Source: Phoronis australis (lineage: Eukaryota; Animalia; Phoronida). Taken from it: a stretch of 64,000 nucleotides of DNA. The stretch is taken from contig NMRA01000769.1 of assembly GCA_002633005.1 (NCBI GenBank), positions 1 through 64,000 on the forward strand, written 5' to 3'. The notes beneath the pieces are model-generated. The model was not told the DNA's origin, did not search any database, and was given only the letters and a program-made list of their open reading frames with translations. Shown here one piece after another: positions 2,673 to 43,090 of the stretch. Position 1 is the stretch's first letter; the number at the start of each line of letters is the position of its first letter. Both the position numbers and the translations under genes were made by a program.

Positions 2673-2919
2673 AGAGACTGATGATTTAGATGTCATTGTT
2701 GTTGACAGAAATAGTATCATATCGCAGAAAGGAATATTATGAAATTCTTATTAGAGTGGAAGGCATAATTTCATTGAAAACATCGATTCTGACTGCGGTG
2801 TTAATACAACTCTCTCAGAACTTTCTCACCAGTAAATTACTGAATATGTCTGAGTCATGCCATAACACAATATTGTTATCGCACCATTGCAATCCAATGA
2901 AAGAGCCACTGAAGTGTCC

Positions 2920-18200: not shown

Positions 18201-21200
18201 GTGCTAATATTTAGTATCGTGAGATCAGCAGGACCACCCTGTATAGTCAAATTAATAGGATCACCCTGTATCTTGAGGTCAGTAGCACCACCCTGTATCG
18301 TCAGATCATTAGGACCACCCTGCGAACTAAACGCTCAACAAATTTTCAGGAATTTTCCAAGTTGGTCTTTTGAATCAAACGGATGGTACAGGAAATGCTC
18401 TAGGCCGTGCGGCGCCCCTTCAGGAATGTCTAAGAATTCCCGATGTTCTTCCTAAAAATAGATTGTAAAATTATGGGTGTATAAATGTTAAATTTAGATC
18501 CAAATGTGACCTCGACCAGACATTTCTGTGATAGAGTTCAGACTACAGACGATTACTACGGAACCACTGAAAATGAGCCTTGTCAACAAAGGCACTAGCC
18601 TCATGTGTCCCGGTTGTTATTGATAATGTAAATGCAAAAAATACTAAGGCAATATGTGCCGAAGTCCGACCATTGAAGTGATCGCTAATAAGAACTGTAA
18701 GAAAACGAGGAACTTGATTGACCTTCGCTTCAATTCTTCTTAAGTACTGACGGATGTCATTTCTATCCCTATAGCAACCGTTGATGGAGCTGCAGGTGGA
18801 GTAATTCGGTACAAAACGGTTCAAGTTAGAGTACCGCCAAATGCAATATCCGGGGACTTAAATGTTGAGTTTGTAGATCAGCCGATGTTAGCACGGGCAG
18901 TGCTTTACCACACGAATGGCAGAGCTACTCTCCATTGTCAAGGAATATGCATGACCTGCAGAGATGGAGATGTAACATTCTCGGAGCCAGTCGAAGTGCG
19001 AATGCGTGTTAGAACAATGTTGGAGGAAGCAGATCATCAACGACTAAACAGCAAAGACTTTCGTATTTTGCATGAAAAAGATGGTGAAGTGACGGACATT
19101 ACTGAAGATTGCAACGTGAAGATGGAATGGGGAGAAATAATCTTCTACTGTAAAACATGTTTAATGGTTAATATTGCTTGGCTGGCAGATTTCACATCAC
19201 CTTTCGCTACTGGCGTGTTTACGACCATCAAAAATATACTCGAAGCGTCATACATGTGCAGGATATGCACGTACATAAAATATAGACAAGATGGAAGATT
19301 GACAGTTCAACTAGTTTGTCATGGAGTGGGCGTGGAGTGTTCTGATGGGATTGAACCCCAGTGTACAAGTTACAAAATGCGTTTGATAAATAGCGCCACA
19401 ATGTTATTTGAATTTGACTGCAGGAGCATTGAGGATGGCGAAAAGAAACACATTTCCTCTAAAGGGTTTAAACTTGAAAGGGATCATTGTGAAAGAGCAT
19501 GTACAGTTTTTGCAATGATTAAGACTGGTGCTCGTGCACTTGTAGCTGACAACGTTCGACTGTGTGTGAAGGAATTAATCTACAAGGAAACGCTGATGGA
19601 CAGGCCTGTGAAGGTCCATGTAAGTACATTACTTGTTTATCTTGTTGTCTGTGTGTGTGGGTCTGCATGTTGCGTGTGGTGTATTGGATTATGAAACAGG
19701 AGTCTGCGTTTCTGTTGCAGTAGCCTTAACTCGGGTGAGAATTTTACACGTTTGACACGCTTCTGAGGTGTCAAACGTGTAAAAAACGTGTAATACGTGT
19801 CAAAATTGCCACGTTAACGTGTAAAACGTGTAAAAATTGCCACGTTAGCATGTCAAACGTGTAAAATGTGACACACTACTGTGTAAAGCGTGTAAAGTTT
19901 TACACGCTAGCGTGTCAAACGTGTAAAATATGATAGAACTCTCCAATACAGATACAATTTAAATAGGCTTGACAGTTCTGAAAAGGCCACTGGGAGGTAA
20001 TCACCCAATTTGAATGACTAAGCATGTTCCCTTAATAGCATCAAAGAATTTGCAACAAAACTTTTCACCGCCTATTCAAATATCGAAATACTGAGTTAGA
20101 GTTGGTTTAGCTGTCAGAGAGTGCAATTGTGTCAGGAGAGCACATATGAAGTATGGTTTTCGAGTGTGGTGCACCTCTAACAGAAGTTTGGCATTTTTAT
20201 TCTCTGGTTGACAGTGCCTTGATGAACTTTTCTTGCAAATGGTCCTTCTTTTAACAGGAAAGTTTGATTGTAACAGAAAACAAGAGTCAGTAGAAACTGT
20301 TGACTATGCAGATAATACATGTAGTTGGAACGCCTCTCATCTAGCGTGCCAAAAGTGCCACGTTTTTGCCAAGTCTTGGAACGCCACGTTCGACACGCTA
20401 TCGCCACGTTTTACACGCTTATCGCCACATTTGACACGCTAAGCGTGTCAAACGTGGAGTATTGGAAGGAAAATTTCACGTTATTGACACGTTCTTGACA
20501 CGTTTGACACGCTATAATTTACACGTTTGACACGCCACGTTTTACGCGTTCGACCCGCTTTTAGGGCGTTCCAATACTCCACGTTTTTAGAGCGTGTTGA
20601 AAAATGCTATTTTGATGTACTAAAAATGAATGAGTTTTGAACCAGTCTTGGCGTACCTGTTGTTTATCATGCCGGTAAGTACAGAATGTAATTAAGAGGC
20701 CAAGCATAAATCCATCCATAGTAATTTTGAGATATTCGCCAAGTCTTGTGTTGTTCAAAAGAGATGCCACTGTACTAGTAACTATTTTTTACGCGCTAAC
20801 TGCTTACGGTGAAAGAACACGTGTAGGTGAGATAATAGGTCATATACATGTATTATATTATGGCAAACTTAACTACTACAGATATCGATAAATACAAGTT
20901 ATATAATATGTTGAGATGTAAAGGTGGGTGACAATCTGTGACAATCAGCCGGAAACGGAGCACTATGGGAAGTTCAATGCAGCAATGATGGAATACACAA
21001 GTGTTGAACTAGGACGATGGCCCAGTGTTGCGACAAGACAAAGAGATCACGTGGTACAATTAAACCAACAATCGTAGAACAAAGAGGGCCACGGACCAGA
21101 GAATCCAAATAATATGATAATGAGGACGAAGCAGTATAGCTTACATAAAATAATTTAATGCTTAAGTAATATCTATGCGTTGAATTTTGTTTCGTTTCAG

Positions 21201-24200: not shown

Positions 24201-27200
24201 AGAGTGTGAATATATCTCAGCTTACTGTAGTTGCGTGCGGTGTCCTCAGCCACATCTAAACAAACCCACTCTTGTCAGCATTTATCGTCATCTGCTTTAA
24301 GGAAAAATTTCTGAAATTGGAATTACACTGGTTGCAAAAAATTGTAGAAACTTCTGATGTAACTAGTTATGGTTTGGTGCGTATCACGCGTGTCTGCTGT
24401 TTCTTTCACTTTGTAAGTTCAATACTTATCACATAGTTTTGATGTTTTGTGGTGGAAATGATTAGGCGTACACTGAACATGTACATAGGAGTAGTGTCAA
24501 TCTAATGTTCACTTTGTTTATGAGAGCCTCAGTCGATGGAAATGCGAGTCTTGGCTCGAAGTTAATAAGCTCAACATAATTGTCTTCGCAGTAAGCAGAT
24601 GGATTTAACAGTGACGCATCGACGCGTTGCTACAGATTCTGGGGTCACTGCTGTCGCATTATACCACTTGGTGGCACCCAACAAAGTCTTCTAGAAATGA
24701 TTCCAATGCAGATTTGTCCATCTTTTACGGTTTACAAACGTGATTCCGGCTTTTTAAAAAAAACAACACAATCATAATTTTGTTCACAAAGCCACGGTTT
24801 GCATGCAATTACTTTGAAAGATAGTGCGTGCAAACAGCGAAACTACTCCACAATTACACTAATCAGATGAAAGGAGGATGTCGGCTAGCAAAATATTTCA
24901 CAAATCCCATATTTCCTTAATTTACCGCAAAGTTTCCCGCGTGCAAACAGTGAATGTTTAGGAAAAGGAAGTCAGATCAAAACGTGGGTTGAAGTGTGAT
25001 TGGCTAACATTCATATTCTCAGAACAAGCAAATGCTAGTCGTGGCCGTCACGTGCAAATTAAGATGTCCAGCCAACCCTGCATGTGCAAATTATTGAAGT
25101 TGGCGCAAGTTCGAATTCAACTGTGAGTAAGGACCAGCAAGCTGCCTAAAACCGGGACTTTTTTTTCAAATTAAACCGCAGTCCCTGAAGATGAGACTGA
25201 TACCAGCCTTAAAATTTAAATAGGGTAACGACGACATACAGTAATAAAGGGCTGCCTGTTTGAAGCATATTGGGTCTAGGGAGAGAAGTTGTTGCCAATT
25301 TATTATTTTTCAGTTTTAGTTTGTTTCAGATTGCCCAAAATTCCTCAGAAATGTTTTTTTCCAGGAATTATGTCAACTTATGTGTTGTATCATGACTAAC
25401 ATTTTCGTGCAGTTAGTCCTGCAAAAATTGTTCTTGGTAAAGGATTTGTGTAAGGCTATGCAGATGGATTATGCAATGCAGTTTTCTTATGAGTAGGGCA
25501 CTAACGAAAGATTTCATTGTGGGTATAATTAAAATGTTTTTGAATTTTCAAGTGTTATCGTTAAAAAAGTGGCATTTTATATGTTTCTAAGACCACGTGT
25601 AGGCACCAAAGATAACGTCTTACGTGATTTTGGCAGCTACCCCAATTGTGTTCGCTCTTGTTACTGCAAGTTCAGCTGGTAGGGTCATTTTTGTGCAGGC
25701 CCGCCCCTAAATGTAGCCGTCAGTTTGTCCAACGGTAAATCTGGCACTTGAGTGAATGCTCGTATCAGTAAACTTTTACTGAGGCCTTACGTCATAACGA
25801 ACATTAATCATTGAACTAGCTGAAATATAACGACAAGCGTCGATACTAAAACATATTGAAATATTCAACACCTTTCAGGCGATGCGCACTTTGTCAAGGG
25901 AATAACAAAGACTACTTATCGGAAACATATAGATGGATGTAAACAAAATCGCACAGTGGACCAAATAGTGGTATATAATATGACAGCATGAACAAACCCG
26001 GCCATATTTTCACTATTTTACATTTTATCCGTCGGAAACTGCACGGCATTGCAGAATCTAATTGATTTAATTATTATCATTAATAATCCAGGGACCACCG
26101 CGGCCGATGAGTCCACGATCAAGTGCCCATTTTTTCATTGTGGTTACGCATGACGTGGTGATGCATGATGTGTAAGAAGAAAGTATTTTGTTTAGTGATG
26201 ATATAGTATTAAATAAAAAGTTTTGCAGGAAATTAAAAGCCTCAAAATAGCTCCACTTCATGCGGAATTGTATAATTGATGAATCGAGTTCTCTTTCGGC
26301 AAAGAGATTATGCCAAATATGGAAAAAGTACATGTTTGTCAGCAACAACATGACACGTGCGAAAATATCCCACAAAATGTCGCAGGTAGAACAGGCTTTA
26401 CTTCTACTTCAGATGTTGACAAGGCCAGAACTTGACTGTTACAACTGCAAAAAGAGAATGGTTCTTTTGAAAGATAAATTTGTTGAGTATTATACATGAA
26501 GGAGTCTGGTACACTTTTGACCTGGAAATGTTTATTTCTGCAACTCACCTATTCTTAGTGCACGGCAGAAGATGCTACCAACCACTGGCATTGGTGACAA
26601 CAGTAACCCACGTGGATTTGAAATTAAATTAAGAGTGAAAAACACCAGCAAAACCAGTGAACAAACTTGAAGTACAAGCTAGAAATTGGGTCACTCTATC
26701 TTGCCGCAATGGAGTTGGGACTCTTTTTTTACGAGTGGGTATACATGTACATGTTTATGTATGCGGTCACTCATTTATTCTGTTCAGAAATTTTTATCTA
26801 TGTCTGGGTCCGAAAAAGGTGAGATTTTTTTACCAAAAACTCTTCTTATCTTTCGTTCGGTGATGGTTCTTGCAACGGCCTCTCGTGGTATTGGCCTCTT
26901 CCATATTATTGCTGGTCACTTGTTCCAGTAAATACTGCCTATACATGCAAAACGTGTTCGGTCCCCTTCCTTGCTTACAACAAACATTTTTCCTCCATGT
27001 GAGACTTAATTGTTTCTCTGTAATAGTTTTACCATGTTCCTAATTCTTGCACAACCAATAACTGCGCAATGTAAAGTCCTAAACATCTTCTACTGGGTCA
27101 AACTGCCTACGTTACGAAAAAACCCAGAACCATTAAAATCTGGACAACTTTGCACATACGGTCTTTTTGATTCTCACAAGTGATGGACATCAGACCTTGA

Positions 27201-30200
27201 CTGGACAAAGTAAAAGGGGCTGGTACAAAATATGGTACTATATTCCACCTTTCCTCCTTCAGGTCTCTAGGTAATCCATCGTTATAACCCGTTTTGATAA
27301 CTGGGATTTTCCACCGACTAAAATCAACGACAGCACCTCAGCCTGATTTCAAACAGCATACCACTACTCCATTTTTGATCGAGGTTCAGATTGTTCTTCA
27401 AGAATTTTGAATGTACACACAGTCTTAAGGACATTCCGAGACTTTGTTTCTGTGAAGACTTCCAGTCACTTGCTGGTTTCTTTGACTGGACAGTAAACGG
27501 AGATTAGAGAACACAGCTTCCCGCATGTTCGAACAGTATCTCGATATCTTTTGCCAGAGTTCCTGAAGTTTTTGGTCAACTTTATTTTTTGATTAGAGCA
27601 AAGTAAAGCACGTTATGACATTATTTGAAATTTTGTTTCATAGCGGAGTGATTAATTGATTAATGGGCATTGTCTAAAAAGTCTTACGTAATAAAAATAG
27701 TCGCAGGCCTGGTGGTCCCATTACACTGATAACCTGGAATGATTATATGCTTCAATATTATAAGTTTAAAGTCGTACAAATTATTCCAATGCATTTTAAT
27801 GAGTAAGAATTGTTTTGCAGTTTATTAAGTGCTCAGCGATCGCAATTTCTTCAAGTTATCTTATTATAAATAACTCTTTTTCAGAAGTTTTATCAACAGA
27901 TGAGTTGGACATCAAGATTGTTAGGGTCGAGCAACCTTTATTAATGCATGCTGTCCGTGAAGAGTTTGAAGATGGAATAGTTTATTTGCATCACCAAAGA
28001 GTGTGTGTGGAAACAAGTGAACGCAAGTTTACATATCCTGTGGAAATGAGGGTGGACGTCAGCGACATTTTAAAACAACTGAGTAATGACAAAGATCCGT
28101 CTAAATTCTTCATATTTAGATTATTCAATGGCGAAGTAACAGACATCACTCTTGAGAGCAAGGCTCAGATGCAAAGCCAGGAATTGGTTTACTACTGTCT
28201 TCAGTTTTCCGAACATGTGATAGGATGGACCAAATATTTTGGCAGAGTTTTTTCTTTTATACGAGACTACTTGAGAGGGACATTTAGGGCTAAATTGTGT
28301 CCATCTGCGAAACAGAAGAAATTCGGTGTATCCCTGAGTTTGCTGTGTCATGTAGATGGATCAAACTGCCCCGAGCATCAGTGTGAGCGGGAATACCCGA
28401 GTGAAGTGCACTGCCAGCAGAAAATAATGTTTTTGGCCCGCATTATATGCAAAGATGGAGACATAGAGAAGGAATCGGTACTGATGAATGTTGACAGAAA
28501 AAAATGTGAACAGACAGGAATGGTCATCGATGCTTGGCAAAGAATTGAGGAAGACAAGCTTGGAGACGATGTTTTAATGGAGGTGTCCCAGCTGTCGAAC
28601 GGCAACAAGGTGGTCCTATATTCAAGGGAGGTCCAGGTAAGTGCAAAATGCATTGAATCACATGTTTATATTCATTACAATGTTTTACCTGTTTTTCATT
28701 ACTGTCGTCCGACTACAGGTCTGGCCCTGTATGACAATTCAGATTTTTTTAAATTTGGATCTCAATAGCGCTTTCGCACCCCTGCACGTATAATTAATAA
28801 AAGATTTGCCAACAAATTTCCGCAAAAAATGCTGAAAGGCTTCATCCCATCGTGTGTCTGGTTTGACCTATTCACTGTCCATCATACAGTCGGTTTATAT
28901 TAATTTTATCTGTTTTTGTGCTCACTCCATGTGGCAGAAGAGTTCCTTTTTGAAGACACGGACAACTTATTTTCAGTCTGGTAATCCTATCTTGATATTT
29001 ATCTAAATCTTTGATGGGAGTTTTGGAATTTTGAATATGCGATTGAGACGTTATTTTATTGGGAAGTGCAAGACTGGTTTTGATTTTCGGGAGCAACCCA
29101 TTGCTATAATGTCCCCAAGGGGCAAATTCCTTTCGATTCAGTTATCATTCTGCTCAACTCGTACGGTGAACAGCTAGATAACTGTATCCGATGCTTGCCA
29201 TCGTAAGCTGTGCTAAACATTTACTAACAGGACCGACGCCTAGATCAGGAAACATGTTAACACATTTTGTTTTCAATTGCTATAAACACTGGCTTTAAAT
29301 TGACACACAAAAGCGGTTTTGGATTCTGATATCGTCCAGTGAAATAAGCATATCAAATTACATTCAGTGAAGACCCAAAATACACACCGGATATCCGCAC
29401 ACCCAGTCAGGCACCGCCATATCTCGCATGATAGCAGTCCTCAGTAAGTAAAGAAATCAAAACTCAATGTCCCACTTCCCTTAAACGTTAAGTATTTGGA
29501 GTTTAAAGACGCAGTCTATTTTGCACTAATGGTAATTATCCCGTACAAAATTTAAAAAGGCGTCAACACCCATTTCCCTCTGTATTTTCAAAATAAATTC
29601 ACGGAATGTACCGAAAACGGCGTGCATGAAAAATTATGCCACGTGACATTATTGAGCGTATTCGACCGTAAGGGTCTTCAAGGGCAAACTTGAACTAGAA
29701 ACTCCTATGCATGAACTACAGTGTATAATGTAATCGAGCACAGTCTGACAACCAATTATCTTAAGTTCGCACAAAAGGAGCAGAGAAATTGCCAAAAATA
29801 GCTTCGAGTTCGTTTCGACTACAAAGATTAGAGACCGGGTCCCGATTGTTTTAGTTCTTGCACTTCGAATTCGTGTTCTTTTCCATTTTGGGATGTTTAA
29901 ATACTTCGCCCGGACTGTTTACGTGGGGAATCACTTCCTGTAGTGTGTGTACGTGCGCGTTATGTTACAAATTTGCTATAGTAAAATAAAATGGTTTATT
30001 AATTGAAAGGGGTAAAAATGCGAAAACGGCAGGTATTGTGCATTGAACTTGTATCAAAAATCGTAAATAAATAAATAACAGTAGTATTTATACCACTGTA
30101 AAGTGATTTGCAGTTGCACTCATAGGGTACAGTAGCTACACTCATTCATAAAACTGGGTCATTATAAAACTGGGTCATTGACCCGAGCGTATGGTCGACT

Positions 30201-33200
30201 GTTCATAGTGCTGCAGTTTCATTACTTGAAACTATTTTGGTTACCGACGCCCGAATAGATGTCAACACTTGTCAATGACACCTTAAGTTCGTGAAATCGC
30301 AAGCGAAATTGTGTTTTAAAATTTTGTGTGATAATATGAAAAGTGAAAGCAACGTCTTCCTCATCACGTATTATGTTTTCAACAAAGAATCTTGGATAGA
30401 ATTCTATTGCACAATATAATCTGGAATAATCTAATCTTGGTCTGTTGCAATAGGATAAGCAAGAGAATCCACATATATCTTGCTATTGTTTATCAAAACC
30501 TAGTTCAGATTACCATCTTAAATAGGTCCCTGAATCTTGGTAAAACGTTTTGAAATATATTGACATTCCTCTAGAGGCAAGAACATATACATTTTTAACT
30601 TTCAAAACAGTCAAATGTCTGGCCAGGGTAACTCTGCTAAAAGGTGTCGCCCCAGCCACGTTTACTCTTGAACTATGTCTCGACAAAATTTGTGTCTCTC
30701 TTATCTTCGATAAAAACTATGCGCCTTTAAAATTGTGTTGAAAATCAAGTCTAAGAAGTTCTTTCCACCAAAGCCTTTTTGGTGGCAATTTTGTCAAGTG
30801 TATAGTACAGGAACGCCGCAACCACGATAAAAATCAAGATTTTGCGAGGTTACCTCAGATATTGCCATGTATTTTTTTAATTCAAAAATTAGATCTTCAC
30901 TGGATTTAGCGAGGCCCTAGTGTACTGTGGGTACTAGCGTTACTGACTATTAACTTTCTTATCAAACCTAACTGTTTTCATGATTTTGACATGATCATCA
31001 AGGCCAGAAAACATGACAAACATGTTCTTGCAAACTTAGCGACTTTCAACAGGGATAGTTCTTCTCCGTTATGCAGCACATTCCGACTTTATCAAACGGT
31101 AATACCTGAAGGTTTACACGGGTGCCATTTCCCTATTGGTGGGTAGTGTCCAGTTTGCCAGATGTGTTTATTATATTCAAATTAAACATAACTTTGATAT
31201 TAAGGTTACCATGAAGTGTCCAATTGTTACTGCAATTTTGAGAATTTATTGCAAGGGAGCCGCTAAACCCACTTTAAATAAACTTGTATTTATGAAAAAC
31301 AACAGTCCATTTCATTTTCTACAAATTCTGATAATTTAGTAGGATGGTGGTGCAGGACAAGCCTATATTCATGTTAACAGCTAGAGATTGATCAAAACGA
31401 CAGTAGTATGGCACGTGTCAAACTGTGTCCATTCTCCTCTTTACACGTCAAAACAACATTTTCTTCAACTTAATGTAAATACTGTGGTCAAATTTGAATA
31501 ATGTAGGATACAGAATTCACAAACTAGGGATTGGAAGTGTTTCCTTTAAATGTTATGTAAAAAATATTACAGTACCACACGAACGATGTATTCTGTTAGC
31601 AAAGCAGAGTTCTGGGCAAAGTGACTTGTATAGAAAACTGGTTTAATCCAAACCTGAATGCTAGCTGGGTTCTATATTTCCAGATTCTAAAACACACGAT
31701 TCCTGAATCACCTTCAACATCTGCTTGTCCTCCGTCAGAACAACGTAAGTACATTTCAACTCAATTCTTTTGATACCAACACGTTTGCTGTAGACAAGTC
31801 GTGATGGTAGAAACTGACATACTTTAACTACACAATTGTTTGTACATCTTGTTTCAGAATCTTTGCCTACAGCGCCACCACTTGGACCGGATGTGGAAGC
31901 GAGTCAAGTCGAACATCTTCACCAGGCTGGCAAGGACGTTCTCACCGTATATTGTCACAGAATGCTGGCTGATGCATGTGCCTCTATAGCATTGATTTCA
32001 GGTTCAAACAAAAGTGGCACTGGTTTTCGTGTTGGCTCACAATATTTGATGACCAACTGGCACGTGGTGGAGGACTTTGTATTCCTGGGTTAGTACAATT
32101 TCTATTGATACTGTATGTCTGTGCCATGTCTGTCTAGTGGTCTCAAAAACTGCATATACATAACGAGCGGTGTTCCGTTTTAGTTTACAATTAGAATCTT
32201 GCCGGATTAAAGTATCTTCCGGACCTATTGTTATTCCAAAGCTCTGGATCAACAGCTACCAGTTGACTTGTATTATGCGAGCAGTTTCTCTTCGGCTTCC
32301 TGACGGAGCAATAATCCTGCCTTTTCACAGGGCGACACTATGTTGACTTCAAGAGTAACGCATCAACCGTTTTAGTCTAACTTGTAGACATACGTAAACC
32401 TTCATCTTATTCTCTCACGATTGGTAGTGCTGGCTGTAGCAGAGTAGGTACATGTATCACGAACACAGCTGGTCCACCTCAAAAACCATGGGCCAAACTG
32501 CTCACCTGTCCTCCGCAAACAGCGCACTCGGCAAAATCCTGCCAATCCGCGGATTGCATTCACGAAGAATTGAGTATAAAAACACATAAGTCAAACCTAA
32601 AGCAATACAGAATGTCCCATAACTAAATATAAAAAAAAACAAATGCACAGATGGCACCAAGTGCCAGGTACCAAATTGTGACAACACTCTTATAACATGG
32701 CATTTATCTATTCTTTACAGTGCCCCGTGCTTTGGCAGGGGTATAGCTTGAGTTAGAGAATGAAATCTAAAAGAATTCAAATGTGCCGAACCACTATAAT
32801 CACTTGGGCCTACCACGACGCATGCTACGTATAGTTGCACGTGTTACTCCACGTGATATACTTGTGAACACTTTCACTTGGGCCAACGTCCTCAATCTGG
32901 TTGTAAAAGATACCCCAATCACACACACTGAAAGTTGACCAGCAATTTACTTTTGTTAGTGAGAATCTGAACAGTGAGTTGGGTAATTGTTCTTTCGACC
33001 AGCAATACTATAATTGGAAAAAATGAATTGCCAAGTGTCACAAAAATAAGAGCAGCTACAGACCATGTTTTTGTGTCCCAAACAATTTTACGACTCCGGG
33101 AGTTTCGCTTTCAAATCTGTACCTTTGCCTCATTTTGATGTGTCAAACCTATATTGCTTGCAATAATTCACGTAGCCAAAACCAGTTGCAACATATCACA

Positions 33201-36200
33201 CTTTTGCGCCTAAGGTTAGATACAACGCTCGGGCTGTAGCCTTATATTACTGAGCTTGATAGGGTGCAACGATGACTTTGTTCCTGACCTCAGAGTTTAA
33301 AATGAGTATTGAATACGATGATGGTACTTTTATTTTTAGCACTTACATGTATGATTGAATGTACAAATCTTGATGCAAATAGCATTAAGATCTCTAGCGT
33401 CTGGGGTCCGCTGCTGCATGACCGAAACTAGTAGCATCGTATCTTATAGGCCTACATGTATGAGGCTGACGCCAAAAGATGAGTTGAACAGTTTGGGGGG
33501 TTCAAAATAATCTGTGTCATCCACCGGTTATCATTTACAATATTGATTTCCATTTTGGCGTCGCACTTTAACAATTGCTTGATGGATCATGATGACGACA
33601 AATGTGTTTTTGATCTGGTGACCGTGGAGGACGTTGATTGGTGGATTAGTGGAGACAGGGGGTGATGTTGTTTGGTGGATAAGTGGAGACTGTAAATGAC
33701 GTAGATTCGTGGATGTGTAGGGACCGAAATTTCCGATATAATCACATCCTTTGTCAACAGAAACAGAATTAGAGTAAAGAAAGCCACGACATGACAAATT
33801 AAATCTGATATTTGACGTAATGAAAATGACACGCGATTTCGGAAAAAGAAAGGGATATAATTTAAGAAATCTATGTTCAATTCATTTGGTTCAAGTGTGT
33901 TAAGATTATGGATCTAAAATTGTTCTCTTTTGTGTCTCTGAGGGGTATTGGGGTATTGCAGTTTTTCTATAATTTGTACAAAAAGATGTTGTATATTACT
34001 GTTTTCCGAATTGAAATGGTTAGGCCTAACTATAGTATCAGAAATGCTCTAATGCATTGTGCCGAACATTTGATTGCAAAATTGAGTTCGCCCTTCAGAG
34101 GATCTGGATCACCCCATTCAGTATCAGACTTATTGTCTACATTGCTTTCTAAATAATTGAGGGTAATTAGAAATAGTCTTAAATTGTAATGAAAGACCTA
34201 TGGATTTCTGCTTGGCACTACTCTTCAATTCGCCTATGTCAAGTAAGATAATTACGTGTCATAACACCTTCCAGTTCGTGTGAGAAAAACTTGGCCTTAC
34301 ATTCCTTACTTCAATTATTACATGTCCATCATACACTGTAGGTCTAGGTGTTACTGGTAACATCAGATCTGACCAGGCGGCGAAATCGGGCAAAAAGTCC
34401 ATCGCGTTTTGGTGTTACTCTTTTATTCGTGACCTTTTTTCTTCTAAGATGGAACAAACCACTTACAAAAATTAAATATATAACACAACGTGACTAATTG
34501 CTCATCTTGCCAAGTCCGTGGATGCGACTGATCTCTTCCTTACCCCTTTCAATTCCTTGTTACTTGCCAACGACAGCGGTAACCGTGTCACCGATGTTCC
34601 CCTTGCCTTCGTTCATCCCCATAGATCGCTGTATTTTTTCGAGAATACCTTTCTATACTATCTCTACTGTCACTCAGCTCGGTAACCTGTCTTTAAGATT
34701 GGCTGATTTCTTTGTCTTTTTCAATTACCTCAGTCTGTTAATACAACTGTTGTCACGAAGCGTTTGAATTACATCAGACGATTTGTGGGTCATTTGTAAC
34801 ACAATTACATCCGGGTTTTCACTGTCCACACATTAACATGAGGTCCGCACAGATACCTAGAGGACTGAGGTCCATTTTTTCAGATGATTTTTGTTCGCAG
34901 TTTCGTTGCTCATTTTTATGCTGTCCAACTTACTTTCATTTCTTTTGCGAATGCTTCCGTAATCCACAGCTGATGTGTACATTTTGAATTAAAAATTAAG
35001 TTTTAGATGTAAGAACAGACTCACCTGTAACTGTGAACACTAGTACGTCTAGTTTGTTAGGAAAACTGCTTTAGTAACCAGCGACGACCATCTTGATTTT
35101 CCATACCACATTCTCATTCATGTATACCTAAGCATATGTTAATGTTTTACCAGATGAAACTGAAACACAAACACCAGCTGCATGTTCAAGTACAGGGGGT
35201 GACATTCCTGAAGACATAACAGGTACATCTTTATTGTTATTTTGTATTGAAACTTTGATGTAACAAAGTTGAAATGATCAATTGGGTGGACTTCGAAACG
35301 AGATGTCTGGTACCTCAAAAACAGATAGCCGCACCCAGAAAAACAGGATAGCGTGATCAAAACGGGTAGGCCGGTGTTCAAACACGATGGCCGAATAGGA
35401 AGTCTGGGCGTCTTGTTTGGTCACTGGCTAACTGGTTATAGCACCAACCAACGTGTTTTGGGTACAGCCAACTAGATTTTTGGGAGAGGCTGTCACGTTT
35501 AGAAGTTAGCAAAGACATTTTATCTGCGCCCCATTTGTTTGGTAACGCAGCCGACTGGTTTTGAATTTCTGGCAAAAGATTTTGAAGTCCGGCCATTTGG
35601 TTTTGTAACGCAGCAGACTGGTTTTGAATTGATGGCACGAGATTTTGAAGTCCGGGCTAATGGTTTTGTAATGCAGCCGACTGGTTTTGAATTTATGGCA
35701 AGCGATTTTGAAGTCCGGGCAAGTGGTTTTAAAGTCTGATCAAAATTTTCTCCACGTAAGCTAAGCTGTTGTCATCCTGAGCAAGTAAGTAAAATAAGAA
35801 GAGATACATGAAAGCGCTCTTATGATCGACAACTGGCCAAATCTACTGGAAACAAAATAAAAAACCTCGTTCTTTTTTTTAGAGTATACTCTTCTAGACT
35901 ATCTGTATAGTGTGACTCCGTCAGCTTGGTAACATGTTTCTACGAATCGCTGGTTACTTTGTCCTTCTTTGACTTTGTCTCGCGAAATCATCTGATATCC
36001 TCCCAATACATGCACGTTTTAACAGCTCGTCACGAAGCGATTGAACCACTGTACATCAGACGACCTGTGAGTCTGGGTTTTCACTGTCCACACATGTTAA
36101 TTAGCATGAGTTTGGGCAGAAGTACATGTACCTAGAGTATCGAGGTACAATTTCTTTGGTTGAGTTTTGTTTGATGTTTCGTTGATTGATCTGCTGTTTT

Positions 36201-39200
36201 TACTATCGTTTATTTTTCGATGGTTTTCATAATCCGAATAGTATGTGTATCTTTTTTGATTAAAGAAATTACGTTGTAAGAAAAGGTTCATATGTCCGTC
36301 TGAGCGCCACTAAGTTTAGTTTATTGAGAAAACTGCGTAAGTAACGGGAAACAATCTTGTCTTAGTTTGATTTTCCATGCCGCATTCTCATTCATGTATA
36401 CTTAAGCATTTGTTAATGTTTTACCAGATGAAACTGAAACACAAACACCAGCTGCGGGTTCAAGTACAGCGGATGTGATCCCTGACGACATAATTGGTAC
36501 GTATTTCTTGTTATTGTGTATTAAATCTTTGATATAACAAAGTTTGAATGAACAATTGGTTGGACTTCAAAACAAGATGTCTGGTACCTCAAAAACCGAT
36601 AGTCGCACCCAGAAAAACAGGATCGCGGGATCAAAAACAGGTAGGCCGGTGTTCAAACACGATGACCGAATAGGAAGTCTGGGCGTATTGTTTGGTCACT
36701 GGCCATCTGGTTATAACCCTGACCAACGTGTTTTGGGCACAGCCAACTGGATTTTTGGGAGAGGCCGTCACGTTTAGAAGTTAGGAAAGACATTTTATCT
36801 CCTGCCATTTTGTTTTGCAACGCAACCGACTGGTTTTGAATTTCTAGCAAGAAATTTTGAAGTCCGGCCATTTGATTTTGTAACGCAGCCGACTGGTTTG
36901 AATTGATGGCAAGAGATTTTGAAGCAAGTGGTTTTGTAATGCAGCCACTGGTTTTGAATTTCTGGCAAGCGATTTTGAAGTCCTGGCAAATGGTTTTGTA
37001 ATGCAGCCACTGGTATTGAAATACAATTTCTTCAGTTGAGTTTTGTTTGATGTTTCGTTTATTGATCTGCAGTTTTACTATCATTTATTTTTCGATGGTT
37101 TTCATAATCCGAATAGTATGTGTACCTTATTTGATTTAAGAAATTACGTTGTAAGAAAAGGTTCGTATGTCCGTCTGAGCGCCACAAAGTCTAGTTTATT
37201 GGGAAAACTGCGTTAGTAACGAGAAAAAATCTTGTCTTACTTTGATTTTCCATACCGCATTCTCATTCATGTATACTTAAGCATTTCCTAATGTTTTACC
37301 AGATGAAACTGAAACACAAACACCAGCTGCGGGTTCAAGTACAGCAGATGTCATCCCTGACGAAATAATGGGTACGTATTTATTGTTATTGTGTATTCAA
37401 ACTTTAATATAAATGTAACGAAGTCGGAATCAACATTTGGTCGGACGCAATGTCCGGTAGCTCAATACCAGATGGCCGCACCCAAAAAAAAAGTTTGACC
37501 GAATTAAGACGAACTGGATGTCCGCAGTCTTGTTTGATCACGGGTTAAATGAATACAGCACCAAACATCGTTTTTTGGGCAGGGCCAACCAAATTTTTTC
37601 GGAGAAGCCATCGCCTTTTGAAACCAGGGCAACACGATTGATCTCCGGCCGTTTGGATTTGTAGTCCTGCCTAGTGATTTTAAGTCCGGGCAAGTGGCTC
37701 TGAAGTTCTATTAAATGTTAATTCTTCCTCTCAATTAACAGTCTAAAATAAGCTAAGCTGTTCTCATGCTGTGCACGACAATGAAATCAAAAGACAAATA
37801 CGAAGGCGCTCTAGTAGATCGACATTTGGCGAAATCTATTGGAAAACAAAATATAATTCCTATGGATCGTTTGGTTATTGTTTTTAGATTACTCTTCTAG
37901 ACTATGTGTACAGTGTAACTCAGCTTGGTATTAGGTTTCTACGAATCGCTGGTTACTTTGTCATTCTTAAACGGCTTTAACAGCTGAACACAATGCCTTT
38001 GAATTGCATCAGGCAAGTTGTGAGTCTGAGTTTTCACTGTCCTCACATGCTAGTTAACATGAGAAGGGCAGCAGTACCTACATGTATGCTGTTTATACAA
38101 TCGTTCATTTTCACTGGTTTATATTGTGTATATGTTTTTGAATTAAGAAATTACGTTATCAATGTAAGAAAAGCTTCATAGGTCTGTCTGAGAGCTGCAA
38201 AGTCTAGTTTATTTGGAAAACTGCTTTAGTAACCGGAGAAGACCTTCTCTTAGTTTGATTTTCTACACCACATTCTAATTCAGGTATATTTATACATTTG
38301 TTATGTTTTACCAGATGAAACTGGAACACAAACTCCCGCTGCAGGTTCAAGTACCGTGGATATCATTCCTGGAAACATATTGGGTAGGTATTTATTGTTA
38401 TTGTATATTCAAACTTTAATATAACAAAGTTGGAATCAACTATTAGTCAGAATTCAAAACGCGATGCCCGGTATCTCCAACCCAGATAGCCGCGCACAAG
38501 AACAGATTGGTCGAATTTAAAAAAGGATTAGCCGGTCATCAAACACGATGGCCGATCTTGAAGTGGTGTTTGATCACCGGCCAACTGGTTATAACACCGG
38601 CCATCGGTTTTAGTGTACAGTCAACTAGAAGTTTACGAGATGCTGTAGCTTATTGAAATCAGGGCAACACATTTGATGTCTAGACGTTTGGTTTGTAGTC
38701 CAGTCGACTCCTTTTGAATGCGGGGGAGCAGTATTTGAATTCTGATCAACTGCTGATTCGTTCATTTGTGTAACAGTGCAAAGCAATCTGAGGTGCTGTG
38801 ATGCTATGGAAGTAAAATGATAAAATGTAAAATCCTAGCAAGGAAGCACTCCAACGGTACGACATTTGGCAAAGTACGTGTAGACTGGAAAAGAACATAC
38901 TAGGACGAAGGAAGAGACATCATGGCAGGCGAGGCCCAGGACAACAATGGCGATGTAGGAGAAAACCTCTTGCGCCTTTACATGTACATGGCTGCTATTA
39001 TTGTCAGCAATTTTGCAAAGTGGACACGAAAGTCGAACAAGAATGATCTGAGAAGAGTTCACAGTCAATAAAACAACAGTTGTTTTAAAAGCTCTTGATT
39101 AAATCCAGTACACCAAGCAGAATGAACGATACCTTGAGTCCAATTTAACTATGAGCGATGTTTTCACGAGAGTTAAAGAATGGCTATAATAAAGTTCGAC

Positions 39201-41659
39201 ATTTATTGAATAACACAGTGCAACATCTTTAAATTACAATAACATTTGTAAGCAAGTCTCGTTACATATCTTGTCACACTTGACTCATATTGTCAACCGT
39301 GGAACAATGTTTGTACATATTGACGTCCTCTATTTTCACACTTGGCTCATACCGTCAACCGTGGAACAATGTTTGTACATATTGACGTCGTCTATTTTCA
39401 CACTTGACTCATATTGTCAACCGTGGAACAATGTTTGTACATTTTGACGTCCTCTATTTTCACACTTGGCTCATACCGTCAACCGTGGGACAATACGTGT
39501 CCATTTTGACGTCATACAGTGCCATTCTCGACAAATTGTTCATTCAAAGTATGGGTTAGTTGAACTGCTTTTATTTTGTTTACTAAGAAAAAAATATTTG
39601 TTTTGCAGATAGAATGAGTGCCGCTCTTTTCCATTTTGACAAACCTTCAGTTCAAGGTGGCAACGAAACAGCTGGCGTAACCATTCAGTCGCTTGAAGCC
39701 CATGACGTAGATCTCGACTTTGCTGTTTTAAAGCTTAACTTGCAAAGTGAACTACCCCGCCGTCTGAGACACTTTCCCAAGCTGATTGCTCTGCCGCAAG
39801 CGCTAAATAGGTACAGAAAGATCAATAGCAGTGACAAAAGTATAAGCTTCGCCGGACATCCCGGTGGTAATCACAAAGTCGTAGATGCTCAGTGCCGTGT
39901 TGTGCAAATGAAAACACGAGAGGTGAGTTAATGCATAGGCGAAGCAGCACTGAAAAAACCGGGGGCTATAGCCCTCTGTCCCTTTGGTGCACCGCCCATG
40001 TTGTTATTCTTTAAGGAAAGAATCTTTGAAATTATGACCATGTAATTCTTTATCTGCAGGCTGTGGATATCTGAGAAACACCATGCGCTTATCGTTTGGA
40101 TTTTTGTTATCCCATCCCTGAGCAAGCCTAGACCAGACAGTGACTAACTTGTCAACCGATTCACAAGTTAATGCTGGTGAAGTAGCCGCGATGCTGAAAA
40201 CAAATGTTTTTCGATAATTTATCTCTCAATATACCACTGTAATAATTCAAATACGGTTGATATTTAACAGAAATCTTGGTCGTTGGTCTTCATTAGTATT
40301 CGTTTGTTTTAAACTTGTACCCCAAACAAGCGTGTTGGTTTAGCACCACAGTTATCTCATACAAAACGTTCAGACCTAAGCCTTATGCCATAGCAACGAG
40401 CTCTCTAAAAGCCGTAATAGCGCCATCAAGACTTTGATGTGCCGTGCATTTCGCCTGATACCCAGGGAGTAAGCAGTTCACCACTTTTCGTCCGCCTGCA
40501 TGCCAATTTTATTTTAGTATGAACACGAGCAAATACATGTACAACTCTAACATATCCTACCACTGAGGACACCTCATTTTAGTATGAACAAGAATGGATA
40601 CTTGTACAACCCTAAATATCCTCCATCTTAGGACACTTTTTATGCTAAAACTCGAATGAAATCTCTGGAGCAACTGTTTTCACTAAATTAAAATTGGCAG
40701 TTATCGAGACCAGAATGATTAAAACATTTCAAAAATAGACCAGAAATATTTAAAAAATTCAGAAACAGGTAGTTCACATAAGAATCCCGAAAAAACAAAT
40801 GTCATTTAAAGGCAATTGTTATTTTGTTATTCTTCAAGGAACAATTATTTGAAATTATTACCGGGTATTTGTTTATCTGCGACTTGAATTGTCTTGTGGA
40901 TGCCTGAATATAAGACAACTCAGCTGTGTGTGAATACTCGAGCCAATCCTTTTGGGTACTTATTGTCCAACTAACCGCGTTTTTTCGATCAAACCTGCAA
41001 TGGAAATACCAGGTACAATTGTGTTTAGTAAAATTAAAATGACATATGGAGAGCCCAAGTAGAGTTAGGTAATACAGAAACAAGTACAACACTGGCATTT
41101 AAAGCCAATAAATTAAGTGCTATTTAAAATCGAGCGTTAACTAGTACGGCTCTTTAAAGAGGTGTAGCAAAGGAGTGCAAAAGGCTTATTTATGCCAGCC
41201 ATCTTGTTCCTCTCTTTCATGAACAGGTTGGTATTAGCCTTTGTACGAGTTACGGTGCACTGAAAGTGCACATCAACCGTGTGAGTTAGTTTTTCTATAA
41301 AAGGCACCTGTCATTTTCAGCACGACAATCTGAAGAGATGGTCGCAGCAGAAGTTTGGTGCCGATACATACCCAAAGCTAGATGATCAAAGACGGGTCCT
41401 GTACCATACTAGTCCGGATTTTGATAAAGGTAGCTCGGGCAGTCCTGGCTTTGTACCTAACGAATCTCAAGAGCCATGTGTGGCTGTCATGCAGTCGTTT
41501 CTCTTTCCGTTTGTGCAGCCGGGCCACAATGTTCCCATGGGTGAAATGGAAGCCAAGTCTATAGAACAAGGAGTCCGACTAGAGGCTATCTATGATGTTT
41601 TGGCACGTGACAACGAGCCTCTTTGTAAAGATATCTTCCCTAATGGTCGACCGAATTAA
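6273..41659 (+). CDS. Multi-exon gene: 2x ZU5/UPA-like modules + C-terminal FAM111-like trypsin-fold serine protease (~1041 aa). Exons: 6273-6291, 14953-15038, 15846-15885, 18775-19619, 21201-21255, 23844-23951, 27885-28636, 31684-31744, 31858-32088, 35154-35222, 36428-36496, 37303-37371, 38315-38383, 39609-39922, 41321-41659
   Basis: Internal exons all have AG/GT boundaries with compatible phases. The spliced total is 3126 nt, open to TAA at 41657-41659. Protease motifs GTGFRVG..MTNWHVV, DLDFAVL, GHPGG, GSSGSP and IEQG are present, with AATAAA at 41759-41764. The 5' exons are less certain. Confidence 0.75.
7497..8685. repeat. Segmental duplicate A'
   Basis: Colinear with 518-1702. Confidence 0.85.
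9441..10310. repeat. Segmental duplicate B''
   Basis: Colinear with 1716-2520. Confidence 0.8.
10778..11503. repeat. Segmental duplicate C'
   Basis: Colinear with 4445-5216. Confidence 0.85.
12844..13652. other. Assembly gap (N run) with duplicated flanks 12415-12843 / 13653-14076
   Basis: N run; the same ~430 bp lies immediately on both sides. Confidence 0.95.
14953..15038 (+). CDS. Coding exon, N-terminal region (TGDGADREIYLPLFHRSFVDVRRKISQG)
   Basis: ttccgttcag acceptor, GGC|gtaggt donor, phase 1 to 0, open frame. Confidence 0.55.
15720..17640. repeat. Intragenic duplication (linker exon + intron), paralog at ~20708-23130
   Basis: Shared blocks such as tgcgttgaattttgtttcgttt.aggaa, aatggttcggc.tgtttgga and gaccttaaagg.gcat...gtaaaaactacatttcaaa. 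Confidence 0.75.
15846..15885 (+). CDS. Linker exon (EHLLRVKSDAPPT)
   Basis: ttcgttttag acceptor, G|gtaagt donor, phase 0 to 1; paralogous to exon 21201-21255. Confidence 0.65.
18214..18321. repeat. Minisatellite 4 x 27 bp
   Basis: gtatcgt.agatca..aggaccaccct units. Confidence 0.8.
18775..19619 (+). CDS. ZU5 + UPA-like module 1 exon
   Basis: Translates VDGAAGGVIRYKTVQVRVPPNAISGDLNVEFVDQP...VTFSEPVEVRM, matching the ZU5 pattern GG-x-VxIPxxA...FxxPVxV. Acceptor ccctatag, donor CAT|gtaagt; homologous to exon 27885-28636. Confidence 0.75.
19738..20600. mobile_element. MITE/foldback-like element with inverted arrays of ACGTGT(C/A)AA
   Basis: Left arm is rich in acgtgtaaaa/acgtgtcaaa, right arm in ttttacacg/ttgacacgt, with unique sequence between them. 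Confidence 0.6.
21201..21255 (+). CDS. Linker exon (EESASGTPTAILLTPQAT)
   Basis: ttcgtttcag acceptor, G|gtaaga donor, phase 0 to 1. Confidence 0.65.
23844..23951 (+). CDS. Linker exon (THNIGDIDKQISKNPLDASHAVYRQTPDLKVTKTA)
   Basis: tatatttcag acceptor, G|gtatgc donor, 108 nt symmetric phase 1, open. Confidence 0.65.
27885..28636 (+). CDS. ZU5 + UPA-like module 2 exon (N-terminal ZU5 strands not evident)
   Basis: Shares QP, LH.Q, F..PVE.R, GEVTDIT, YC, I.W and L.CH..G..C motifs with module 1. Has LQFS at the ZU5 HFS-equivalent site. Acceptor tttttcag, donor CAG|gtaagt. Confidence 0.75.
31684..31744 (+). CDS. Pro/Ser-rich linker exon (ILKHTIPESPSTSACPPSEQ)
   Basis: tttccag acceptor, C|gtaagt donor, phase 0 to 1. 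Confidence 0.7.
31858..32088 (+). CDS. Trypsin-like (FAM111-type) protease exon 1, catalytic His (codon 32061-32063)
   Basis: CASIALISGSNKSGTGFRVGSQYLMTNWHVV; gtttcag acceptor, G|gttagt donor. Confidence 0.85.
35154..35222 (+). CDS. 69-nt repeat microexon 1 (DETETQTPAACSSTGGDIPEDIT)
   Basis: ttttaccag acceptor, G|gtacat donor, symmetric phase 1, no stop. Confidence 0.65.
35268..35742. mobile_element. MITE-like element, consensus TIR ~ttggtcggacttcaaaac/gttttgaagtccgaccaa; copies at ~36541-37020, 37422-37715, 38428-38752
   Basis: Imperfect terminal inverted repeats and internal ~62-bp repeats (gcagccgactggttttgaatt...gattttgaagtccgg). Confidence 0.6.
36428..36496 (+). CDS. 69-nt repeat microexon 2 (DETETQTPAAGSSTADVIPDDII)
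   Basis: ttttaccag acceptor, G|gtacgt donor, symmetric phase 1. Confidence 0.65.
37303..37371 (+). CDS. 69-nt repeat microexon 3 (DETETQTPAAGSSTADVIPDEIM)
   Basis: ttttaccag acceptor, G|gtacgt donor, symmetric phase 1. Confidence 0.65.
38315..38383 (+). CDS. 69-nt repeat microexon 4 (DETGTQTPAAGSSTVDIIPGNIL)
   Basis: ttttaccag acceptor, G|gtaggt donor, symmetric phase 1. Confidence 0.65.
39274..39513. repeat. Minisatellite ~4 x 62 bp with alternating A/B variants
   Basis: cacacttg units start at 39275, 39337, 39399 and 39461. Confidence 0.9.
39609..39922 (+). CDS. Trypsin-like protease exon 2, catalytic Asp (codon 39716-39718)
   Basis: HDVDLDFAVLKL and FAGHPGGNHKVVD.C motifs; ttttgcag acceptor, GAG|gtgagt donor. 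Confidence 0.85.
41321..41659 (+). CDS. Terminal protease exon, catalytic Ser (codon 41435-41437)
   Basis: Missed by the ORF track. Translates ...RRVLYHTSPDFDKGSSGSPGF...CVAVMQ...SIEQGVRLEAIYDVL...DIFPNGRPN*; cattttcag acceptor. Confidence 0.88.
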   Translation, partial: HDNLKRWSQQKFGADTYPKLDDQRRVLYHTSPDFDKGSSGSPGFVPNESQEPCVAVMQSFLFPFVQPGHNVPMGEMEAKSIEQGVRLEAIYDVLARDNEPLCKDIFPNGRPN

Positions 41660-41758
41660 ATTTTCAGTACGACTGAGGACGTTACCTCAACCACAAAAAT
41701 GAATGTATTATTGACATACACTGTATCTGTATAGCTGTTTTTTGCCAATCATACACGA

Positions 41759-41764
41759 AATAAA
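41759..41764 (+). terminator. Candidate polyadenylation signal AATAAA
   Basis: About 100 nt downstream of the protease stop codon. Confidence 0.4.
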
Positions 41765-42624
41765 ATGTATCGTTCATGTATCATACATGCAATTCTAAGG
41801 TGCACGTGCGGCTTGTGATGACTAAGTAGCACAGCACACATGTTAAGTTCACCACATGTGTTTGTTTGTGTTCTTTATGCTGTCTCTCTACACGAATGTG
41901 CCCGTGCTGTATATGTGCGTGGACCATGATACAACTCCCATGACGATGACACTTGAAAGAAGAAGCAAATCCATGGGCGCTTTTTGAGAACAGAAGCGAC
42001 ATCTTTTGGCGTTGATATCCCACGATTTGGACATTTTACGCTCAGGTAAACGACGTTCAATTAGTTGAACGACACAAAGCAACTATGGCATAAAAATAAT
42101 ATGCGCTTGTAACATATCAGCAATTTGTTTTTCCTAGTCAATAAGCAACATTCAGTTCCCCTGCCTTCGTCAAAGTGACGAATAATTGTATTGCGCTCAT
42201 CTGTAACGTGAGCTATACGTTTCAAAAAGTACGCCCACACCTGCGGTCATAAAAATCAACCAGCGTGAGATTGCTTCATCAAATATTCCAGGCACATTAG
42301 TATTGTACAGTCGTGGTTTACCTTTCCGTAAACAATGCAAGCAAATTGTATTTTTTCATCTTGCCACGTGAATACGGTGTTTTAAAAACTCACATCTGAG
42401 GCCGTTTAAAATTTAACGAGTTTCAGTGCCGATAGCGTACATGTACGTGCGCAGAGAAGCCATGACTGTGTACTTTTTTAAAAGTTTCGTTAGGTGTGTT
42501 TTCAAAGACCTACATAAATCAATGGTGTTAAAATACACAGCGTGTCTGTAAATTTAGACAAACAATGTTTACAACCTACCGCAGTGTATCACCCCAATGA
42601 AATGTAACCGACAGATACATATAC

Positions 42625-43090
42625 ATGTATGTACAATTGAGCGTGCGGTGTATCTTCTGATTGTAGTGAAACTAACATGTATGTATTATGGTGTTGACAG
42701 TGTATCCTCTCGATGACGTGTACCTAACATGTATGTATAATGATACTTAAGTGTATCCTCTCAATGAGGCGACACCACAATATAGGAATAATGGTGCTGA
42801 CAGTGTATCTTCTCAATGAAGTGTTACCAACATATACGCATAATGGTGCTAACAGTGTATACTCTGATTGTATGGTAACTAACATACATGTATAATGGTG
42901 CTAACAGTGTATACTCTGATTGTATGGTAACTAACATAAATGTATAATGGTGCTAACAGTGTATACTCTGATTGTATTGTAACAAACATACGTGTATAAT
43001 GGTACTGACAGTGTATCCTCTCAATGAAGTGTATGAATATACATGTGTAATAGTGCTTACAAAATATCTTTTCAAAGAACCATAACCAAC
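42625..43090. repeat. Minisatellite ~52 bp, about 8 degenerate copies
   Basis: taatggtgctaacagtgtatactctgattgtatggtaactaacata units at 42841, 42893 and 42945. Confidence 0.85.

Follow-up and report, generated by a model that had tools for sequence, protein, structure and literature searches.

The 60-loop of thrombin is a regulatory insertion between the catalytic His and Asp, and the insertions of this kind in KLK and thrombin are about 10 residues long. As described in PMC4256358, the 99-loop of KLK2, called the 'kallikrein loop', is a regulatory loop insertion between His57 and Asp102, and in PMC10920703 the loop L4 of FAM111A (residues 413–422) is presented as a dimer sensor lying between His and Asp. 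For duplicated exons, the Exonize study (PMC12343006) describes an 'obligate' class of tandem exon duplication, in which all the duplicates are present in every transcript, while the mutually exclusive use of tandem duplicated exons is emphasized in PMC9013439. In the present work, we analyzed a window of 64,000 nucleotides (nt) of eukaryotic DNA carrying spliceosomal introns from Phoronis australis (assembly GCA_002633005.1, contig NMRA01000769.1, positions 1 to 64,000; the window is this whole stretch of DNA), in which an array of four 69-nt microexons, termed E1 to E4, lies between the exons carrying the catalytic His and Asp of a serine protease. The four exons are spliced in series and would insert 92 acidic, Thr/Ser/Pro-rich residues, predicted to be disordered, after the catalytic His, and we propose with moderate confidence that this insert is a constitutive charged flap, which limits or steers access to the cleft.

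The loops of KLK2, thrombin, and FAM111A resemble the array in that extra residues stand in a surface loop between His and Asp near the cleft, where, in those proteins as they are described, access or activity is controlled. However, those loops are described as ordered or ordered on demand, whereas the insert of the array consists of 92 residues, is repetitive, highly acidic, and predicted to be disordered, and is encoded by four exons of its own. The obligate class of tandem exon duplication is matched in that adjacent homologous exons were copied together with their introns, the phase is symmetric, and all the copies are present in the observed transcripts, which come from few samples at modest depth. 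In contrast to the literature that emphasizes mutually exclusive use, the exons of the array are used additively, and their site is a catalytic domain, not a linker or a protein built of repeat domains. The copying of whole exons is not an unprecedented way to grow a protein loop; what is unusual here, as judged from the literature consulted, is the site, in the catalytic domain beside the active site, and the size.

The exons of the array and of the protease domain are as follows.

31858–32088, + strand: His exon, encoding ..GTGFRVGSQYLMTNWHVVEDFVFL, with the catalytic His codon at 32061–32063
35154–35222, + strand: microexon E1, 69 nt, phase 1-1, product DETETQTPAACSSTGGDIPEDIT, with AG/GT borders and spliced reads
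36428–36496, + strand: microexon E2, 69 nt, phase 1-1, product DETETQTPAAGSSTADVIPDDII, with spliced reads
37303–37371, + strand: microexon E3, 69 nt, phase 1-1, product DETETQTPAAGSSTADVIPDEIM, with spliced reads
38315–38383, + strand: microexon E4, 69 nt, phase 1-1, product DETGTQTPAAGSSTVDIIPGNIL, with spliced reads
39609–39922, + strand: Asp exon, encoding DRMSAALFHFDK..DVDLDFAVLKL.., with the catalytic Asp codon at 39716–39718 and the joints 38383>39609 and 39922>41321
41321–41659, + strand: Ser exon, encoding GSSGSP, with the catalytic Ser codon at 41435–41437 and the stop codon at 41657–41659, followed by the 3' untranslated region (UTR)

The 3' end of the His exon is fixed by the reads joining 32088 to 35154, and its 5' end was inferred from the AG at 31856–57 and the open frame. 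All four microexons are bordered by ..ttttaccAG on the 5' side and by GTA on the 3' side. The only open frame of each microexon takes one base (G) from the preceding exon and passes one base (G) to the next, where G+AT forms an Asp codon at every border; in the other two frames, three or all four of the copies contain stops. The encoded products are 23-mers, which amount to 4 × 23 = 92 residues. The initial annotation had described four duplicated units of about 1 kilobase, each with a 69-nt exon with AG/GT sites in phase 1-1, free of stops and indels, and both the sequence and the alignment agree with this description. It had also pointed out that the His exon can be joined directly to the Asp exon in frame, which is correct: the His exon ends with ..CTG G before the gt at 32088, and the Asp exon begins with AT AGA.. 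at 39609, so that G+AT is formed again.

The RNA data carrying the same species label consist of a contig set (X1) and three raw RNA sequencing (RNA-seq) runs (X2–X4), which were mapped to 26000–43000 and 31700–41400. The gene is expressed in X2 and X3, where the orientation of the reads is that expected for + strand RNA in a stranded library; no junction reads were found in X4. The joints of the array and of the exons that follow it are given below.

32088>35154, His exon to E1: 1 read in X2, 11 reads in X3, seen in an X1 contig, GT..AG
35222>36428, E1 to E2: 4 reads in X2, 7 reads in X3, seen in an X1 contig, GT..AG
36496>37303, E2 to E3: 8 reads in X2, 4 reads in X3, not seen in an X1 contig, GT..AG
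37371>38315, E3 to E4: 7 reads in X2, 5 reads in X3, seen in an X1 contig, GT..AG
38383>39609, E4 to Asp exon: 4 reads in X2, 5 reads in X3, seen in an X1 contig, GT..AG
39922>41321, Asp exon to Ser exon: 4 reads in X2, 13 reads in X3, seen in an X1 contig

The reads supporting the serial array amount to 61 over the two runs, including five X3 reads of a shorter form of E1, and all of them are sense and spliced at GT..AG. The spliced contigs of X1 contain His-E1-(E2) and E3-E4-Asp-Ser, and two X1 contig pieces cover E2 with 0 differences. The depth scaled to exon length is approximately 4–16x on E1, E2, and E4 and approximately 10–21x on the Asp exon. All four segments are exons, and their use is additive. 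That they are real spliced exons, as had been claimed, is established by the 61 serial reads together with the X1 contigs, whereas the mutually exclusive use suggested at the same time is refuted because reads join E1 to E2, E2 to E3, and E3 to E4. In a mutually exclusive cluster, each mature transcript has one exon, which is not the case for the transcripts observed here. Tandem duplicated exons are commonly assumed to be spliced alternatively or in a mutually exclusive manner; this array, where they are additive, corrects that view, and a gene finder that skips 69-nt exons would predict a protein that is 92 residues short.

The other form of variable splicing proposed in the initial annotation is a loop of tunable length, in which other tissues or conditions would include from zero to four of the exons, giving isoforms that differ in the length of the loop. 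All the exons are in phase 1-1 and the His exon joins the Asp exon in frame, so every subset of the exons would preserve the reading frame; in addition, the reads come from two expressing samples only, with 9–16 reads per junction. However, none of the 15 joints found in 31700–41400 skips an exon of the array, compared with 61 serial-junction reads, and because each junction is covered by about 9–16 reads, a minor skipping isoform (under about one-fifth) or a pattern restricted to another tissue could escape this count. The microexons and the Asp exon are covered to a similar depth, and the serial form appears also in the X1 contigs, which date from another year. RNA folding around each exon gave no stable structure (z of +0.49 to +1.62 relative to shuffles), and an Rfam scan of 26000–43000 returned 0 families. 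Inclusion of a variable number of exons was not seen, and we consider a loop tuned by splicing to be improbable.

The shorter form of E1 lacks 6 nt within 35154–35168, so that it consists of 63 nt, remains in frame, and loses Gln-Thr; it is joined to 32088 in five X3 reads, compared with 11 reads of the reference length. At position 35183 in E1, the RNA of X1–X3 has G instead of T, which changes Cys to Gly and matches the other three copies. The short E1 and the change at 35183 may be allelic or may come from a close paralogue. One extra transcribed stretch was found in the intron between E1 and E2.

35912–36066, + strand: extra transcribed stretch in the E1-E2 intron, with a GTGAGT donor at 36067, spliced to E2

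The joint of this stretch to E2 (36066>36428, GT..AG) is covered by three reads in X2 and five reads in X3, and sense depth in the bin 35912–36235 is present only in the two runs expressing the gene. The frame of the stretch that fits E2 has a TGA at 36042–44, and because of this stop the form cannot continue the protease frame; the stretch may be a poison exon or an internal first exon. Homologues of the stretch, in the repeat families D9, D11, and D15, lie upstream of E1 and E4, where no joint was observed.

The motifs TNWHV, DFAVLKL, and GSSGSP follow one another in the order of the His/Asp/Ser triad and are the sole such set in the window. When single exon pieces were scanned, the His exon matched the Pfam family Trypsin_2 (PF13365) with an expectation value (E) of 0.0046 and 18.1 bits, which is below the 27.6-bit cut-off, and the Asp and Ser exon pieces, scanned separately, gave 0 Pfam families. 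The sole plausible match in the PDB sequence searches was a weak one (E of 0.59) between the His exon, at its His motif, and a staphylococcal serine protease. The ESM Atlas, used for leads only, pointed for the Ser and Asp pieces solely to PA-clan families, which for the Asp piece were Trypsin/Trypsin_2 clusters.

Using ESMFold2, the pieces of the three exons were entered as separate chains and co-folded, which gave a value of 0.80 relative to 0.39 for the best of three controls; the mark applied is reached by 51 of 78 solved complexes and by 2 of 108 mismatched pairs, the contact agreement between runs was at least 73%, and the partner predicted local distance difference test (pLDDT) value was at least 67. 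A pass of this kind may come from likeness to solved structures, the pieces being those of one domain with a well-solved fold. In the model, YLMTNW (His-exon residues 63–68, before the His) contacts DFAVLKL (Asp-exon residues 36–42, after the Asp), and the ALI.. strand of the His piece contacts the initial ..LF.. of the Asp piece. GSSGSP is turned toward the His piece, where Ser-exon residues 37–42 are in the interface. The three exon pieces are modelled as one chymotrypsin-fold domain, and the order of the triad together with the double beta-barrel that brings the triad together in the model assigns the host, at the level of a predicted structure, to the PA clan (Trypsin_2-like) of serine proteases.

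The position of the array between the catalytic His and Asp of a protease, which had been proposed from the letters, is supported by the motif codons, the splice joints, and the co-fold. According to the co-fold model, the array is entered 8 residues past the catalytic His, and the chain rejoins the domain 5 residues ahead of the next core strand. The spacing from His to Asp, which is 45 when the array is left out, rises to 137 when it is included. In chymotrypsin terms, this site corresponds to the connection that contains the '60-loop', along the rim of the cleft. With its RNA evidence, the locus shows that a loop adjacent to an active site can grow by tandem duplication of whole exons to three times the usual His-Asp spacing, with the gene still expressed and in frame.

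For comparison of the whole protein, FAM111 is an animal serine protease that, as far as the sources describe it, is likewise of a non-canonical Trypsin_2 type and has a large N-terminal part outside the protease. Vertebrate FAM111 members carry two N-terminal ubiquitin-like domains, which are lacking in the invertebrate FAM111A-like proteins, and such FAM111A-like proteins are reported from marine invertebrates (PMC9798293). The His-Asp spacing of human FAM111A is given as 54 (H385, D439), compared with the values of 45 and 137 obtained here. When each of the three exon pieces was compared with all PDB chains using phmmer, with E up to 10, no FAM111A chain was returned despite the solved structures 8S9K and 8S9L (PMC10920703); the queries were short single pieces, and a distant kinship is possible. 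Membership in FAM111 is not supported by these searches. A metagenome locus was also rejected as a relative; its tblastn match of 48 residues, around one seeded pattern, includes neither a catalytic motif nor the other exons, and it is attributed to chance.

The insert of 92 residues contains 21 Asp/Glu, 0 Lys/Arg/His, and 33 Ser/Thr/Pro, in agreement with the earlier description of the products as acidic Thr/Ser/Pro-rich 23-mers. Its mean scaled hydropathy is 0.450, where the Uversky boundary is 0.495, which places it on the disordered side, and its composition suggests that the insert is disordered. No canonical pattern of a SUMO-interaction motif or another linear motif was recognized by eye in the Ile-rich half of the repeat. 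Unequal crossing-over between the repeat-rich introns would have grown the array, and the serial splicing of E1–E4 would add the 92 residues to the loop just after the catalytic His. Most simply, a long, flexible, strongly negative segment fixed at the cleft rim would then limit or steer access. The initial annotation had suggested that the loop could act as an autoinhibitory segment, a bait region for pathogen proteases, or a phospho-switch; of the possible roles, we prefer a flap that limits access. If such an acidic flap gates the cleft or docks a partner, the control of this trypsin-like protease would be modular, and its strength could be changed by unequal crossing-over.

The same composition may also be read as a mucin-like loop of a secreted protease, in which O-glycosylation of the Thr/Ser/Pro-rich repeats would let them shield the catalytic domain or act as a spacer for it. 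The share of Ser/Thr/Pro, with runs of TQTPAAGSST, is consistent with such a loop, as is the phase 1-1 of the exons, which is typical of extracellular modules. However, no signal peptide or 5' end was found at the locus, and the strong acidity and the Ile-rich second half are, in our judgement, atypical of mucin repeats. We regard O-glycosylation of the loop as the least probable of the explanations and hardly to be expected.

Another explanation concerns the T-Q-T found in the repeats. The motif recognized by the dimeric hub LC8 (dynein light chain) has 8–10 residues, lies in disordered regions, and is anchored by a Q with flanking T; multivalent clients are described (PMC12057147), as for ASCIZ (PMC5963919, PMC10046861). 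TQT is present in four of the four reference copies, within the constrained codons 1–14, and the insert is predicted to be disordered, so that by sequence the repeats have the form of a TQT-anchored LC8 motif in a predicted-disordered region. By recruiting LC8 dimers, four such anchors, 23 residues apart, would zip one protease molecule to another. ASCIZ-type clients, as the sources describe them, likewise have several TQT anchors that follow one another at short, regular intervals in a disordered stretch; the array differs from those clients in that its putative motifs lie in a loop of an enzyme domain, have acidic flanks, and lack the anchor in one expressed variant. Human FAM111A, which is of the Trypsin_2 type, needs dimerization for activity, and its His-Asp loop senses the dimer (PMC10920703). 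By analogy, the copy number of the exons would set the valency of an LC8-driven zipper in the catalytic domain, pairing and switching on two proteases; unequal crossing-over would drive the evolution of this valency, which would differ between alleles. However, the four copies come from one ancestor and count as a single occurrence, TQT arises in 2.4% of shuffled units (100,000 trials), the expressed 63-nt variant of E1 loses Q-T, and the residues before the anchor are acidic. Before an LC8 anchor, basic or small residues are more usual. We consider a docking ladder of this kind, and likewise the zipper drawn by analogy from it, to be very improbable, and retain the constitutive charged flap as the preferred reading.

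The array arose by tandem duplication: a 270-nt repeat family has four copies with start-to-start distances of 1274, 875, and 1012 nt, and the units are 0.9–1.3 kilobases long. Per 69 nt, E2 and E3 differ at 4 positions, E1 differs from E2 and E3 at 10–11, and E4 differs from each other copy at 14. Judged by these differences, E3 is the youngest copy, with 4 differences from E2, and E4 the most diverged. E2 and E3 are 94% alike across 300 nt, intron included (repeat family D4). E3 was also considered as a recombinant of units 2 and 4, where its upstream side is E2-like (92–94% vs. 82–84%) and its downstream side is about equally far from both; this origin is not claimed. The exons are accompanied by elements resembling miniature inverted-repeat transposable elements (MITEs), two of which are located as follows.

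36553–36874, strand not assigned: MITE-like element approximately 55 nt 3' of E2, with 20-nt inverted ends
38433–38458 and 38734–38759: like inverted pair downstream of E4, from the inverted-arm comparison

These MITE-like elements lie about 55 nt downstream of the exons and have inverted ends of 20–26 nt, with arms that are 85% and 81% complementary; the one after E1 contains 63-nt tandem repeats. In the run X4, where the gene is not expressed, reads contain short pieces of the MITE-like elements.

To compare the conservation of the exons with that of their flanks, the four copies were put into a 4-way alignment, in which every exon was extended by 250 nt both upstream and downstream. The 69 exon columns contained 0 gap runs and the 556 flank columns 27, as expected from the earlier statement that indels are frequent in the neighboring intron and absent from the exon. 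The Poisson estimate for the absence of gaps in the exon is P ~0.035 using all flanks and ~0.13 using the nearest ±100 nt, where there are 6 gap runs in 200 columns. Nucleotides 1–42 of the exon are the best-kept stretch of the alignment, with an identity of 88–100%. In codons 1–14, Nei-Gojobori counting between E4 and E2 or E3 gave four synonymous differences and one non-synonymous difference, corresponding to a proportion of synonymous differences (pS) of 0.36 and of non-synonymous differences (pN) of 0.03. Codons 1–14 look constrained and codons 15–23 do not, and the DNA taken by itself gives modest evidence for coding constraint, which is confined to the first half of the repeat.

The main rival to a functional flap is a tolerated, near-neutral expansion, in which unequal crossing-over copied an in-frame symmetric exon and the added residues are harmless in a disordered surface loop, with no role of their own. 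This explanation is consistent with the youth of the copies, E2 and E3 being alike also in the intron, with the MITE-like repeats that flank each exon, and with the expression of an E1 form shorter by 6 nt. It is also consistent with the conservation results, which weigh against the flap. The pairwise identity of the exon is 80–94%, which is not higher than the 82–94% of the 50 nt upstream or the 82–93% of the 50 nt downstream; the test named beforehand, that the exon be better conserved than its flanks, fails overall, a result that is moot given the RNA evidence. Nucleotides 43–69 of the exon are the worst-kept stretch, with an identity of 67–85%, and diverge faster than the flanks, and codons 15–23 show pN ~ pS in the Nei-Gojobori counting. 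Because of these results, a large part of the insert may be free of constraint. In codons 1–14, the selection signal consists of five substitutions, and the compared pairs are not independent.

Further points on the same side come from the RNA and the model. The expression data consist of two expressing samples from one study (X2 and X3) and one older run (X1). Eight of the 19 reads entering E2 come from the intronic donor at 36066 and cannot continue the protease frame, so that part of the output of the gene is non-productive or internally started. The exact loop that receives the array was taken from the contact list of an alignment-free model, not from coordinates. Word-seeded searches for homologues gave no relative for the Asp exon (74 candidates), the Ser exon (20 candidates), or the two aligned N-terminal paralogous domains (3723 candidates), and the 5' end of the gene and a signal peptide were not found at the locus.

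On the other hand, a near-neutral expansion does not readily account for the ratio of four synonymous to one non-synonymous difference in codons 1–14 between the oldest and younger copies, for the eight splice sites and four frames, which are all intact at a divergence of approximately 20%, or for the absence of indels from the exons compared with the 27 gap runs of the flanks. We regard a near-neutral expansion as unlikely, while it is to be taken seriously, and the constitutive charged flap remains the explanation that we favor.

Reads of the minus strand were also found at this locus. In X2 and X3, antisense reads cover 39152–39801, 40877–40992, and 41370 onward, with the joints 39801>40877 and 40992>41370 (CT..AC, which is GT..AG on the minus strand). 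They indicate that a spliced antisense RNA overlaps the Asp and Ser exons. A 62-nt tandem repeat at 39274–39513 lies inside one of the antisense exons. In the region of the 3' UTR, at 42648–42995, reads 'go back' by 52, 95, or 208 nt, and because of this the individuals used for RNA-seq are taken to have more copies of a tandem repeat of approximately 52 nt than the reference.

Upstream of the protease domain, one large exon was found.

27885–28636, + strand: large upstream coding exon with an open frame, with sense reads in X2 and X3 only

This exon probably belongs to the same gene, and the mapping of 26000–43000 listed no joint from it to 31858. A direct join to the His exon was rejected, where the phase 0 at the end of this exon mismatches the phase 1 at the start of the His exon and the join would run into a stop; judged from the frames, a small exon or another donor must lie between 27885–28636 and 31858. 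Pfam gave nothing on the upstream exon, and the AlphaFold2 model of this N-terminal domain had a mean pLDDT of 38, which is too low for use. The open frame at 18744–19694 (+), with 316 codons, is 30% identical to the exon 27885–28636 (E of 4e-19), and on this likeness it would be a paralogue located upstream or else the same domain present a second time within one gene. No second protease triad was found in the window.

A short element at 29669–29839 has high depth in both orientations in all four runs, including X4, and Rfam gave no match for it; because its reads have loose ends on both sides, it is taken to be a repeat that numerous other transcripts contain. A gap of 809 N is located at 12844–13652. 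The open frame at 2913–3761 (+) encodes an RNase H domain (Pfam E of 1.1e-11) and is probably part of a retroelement.

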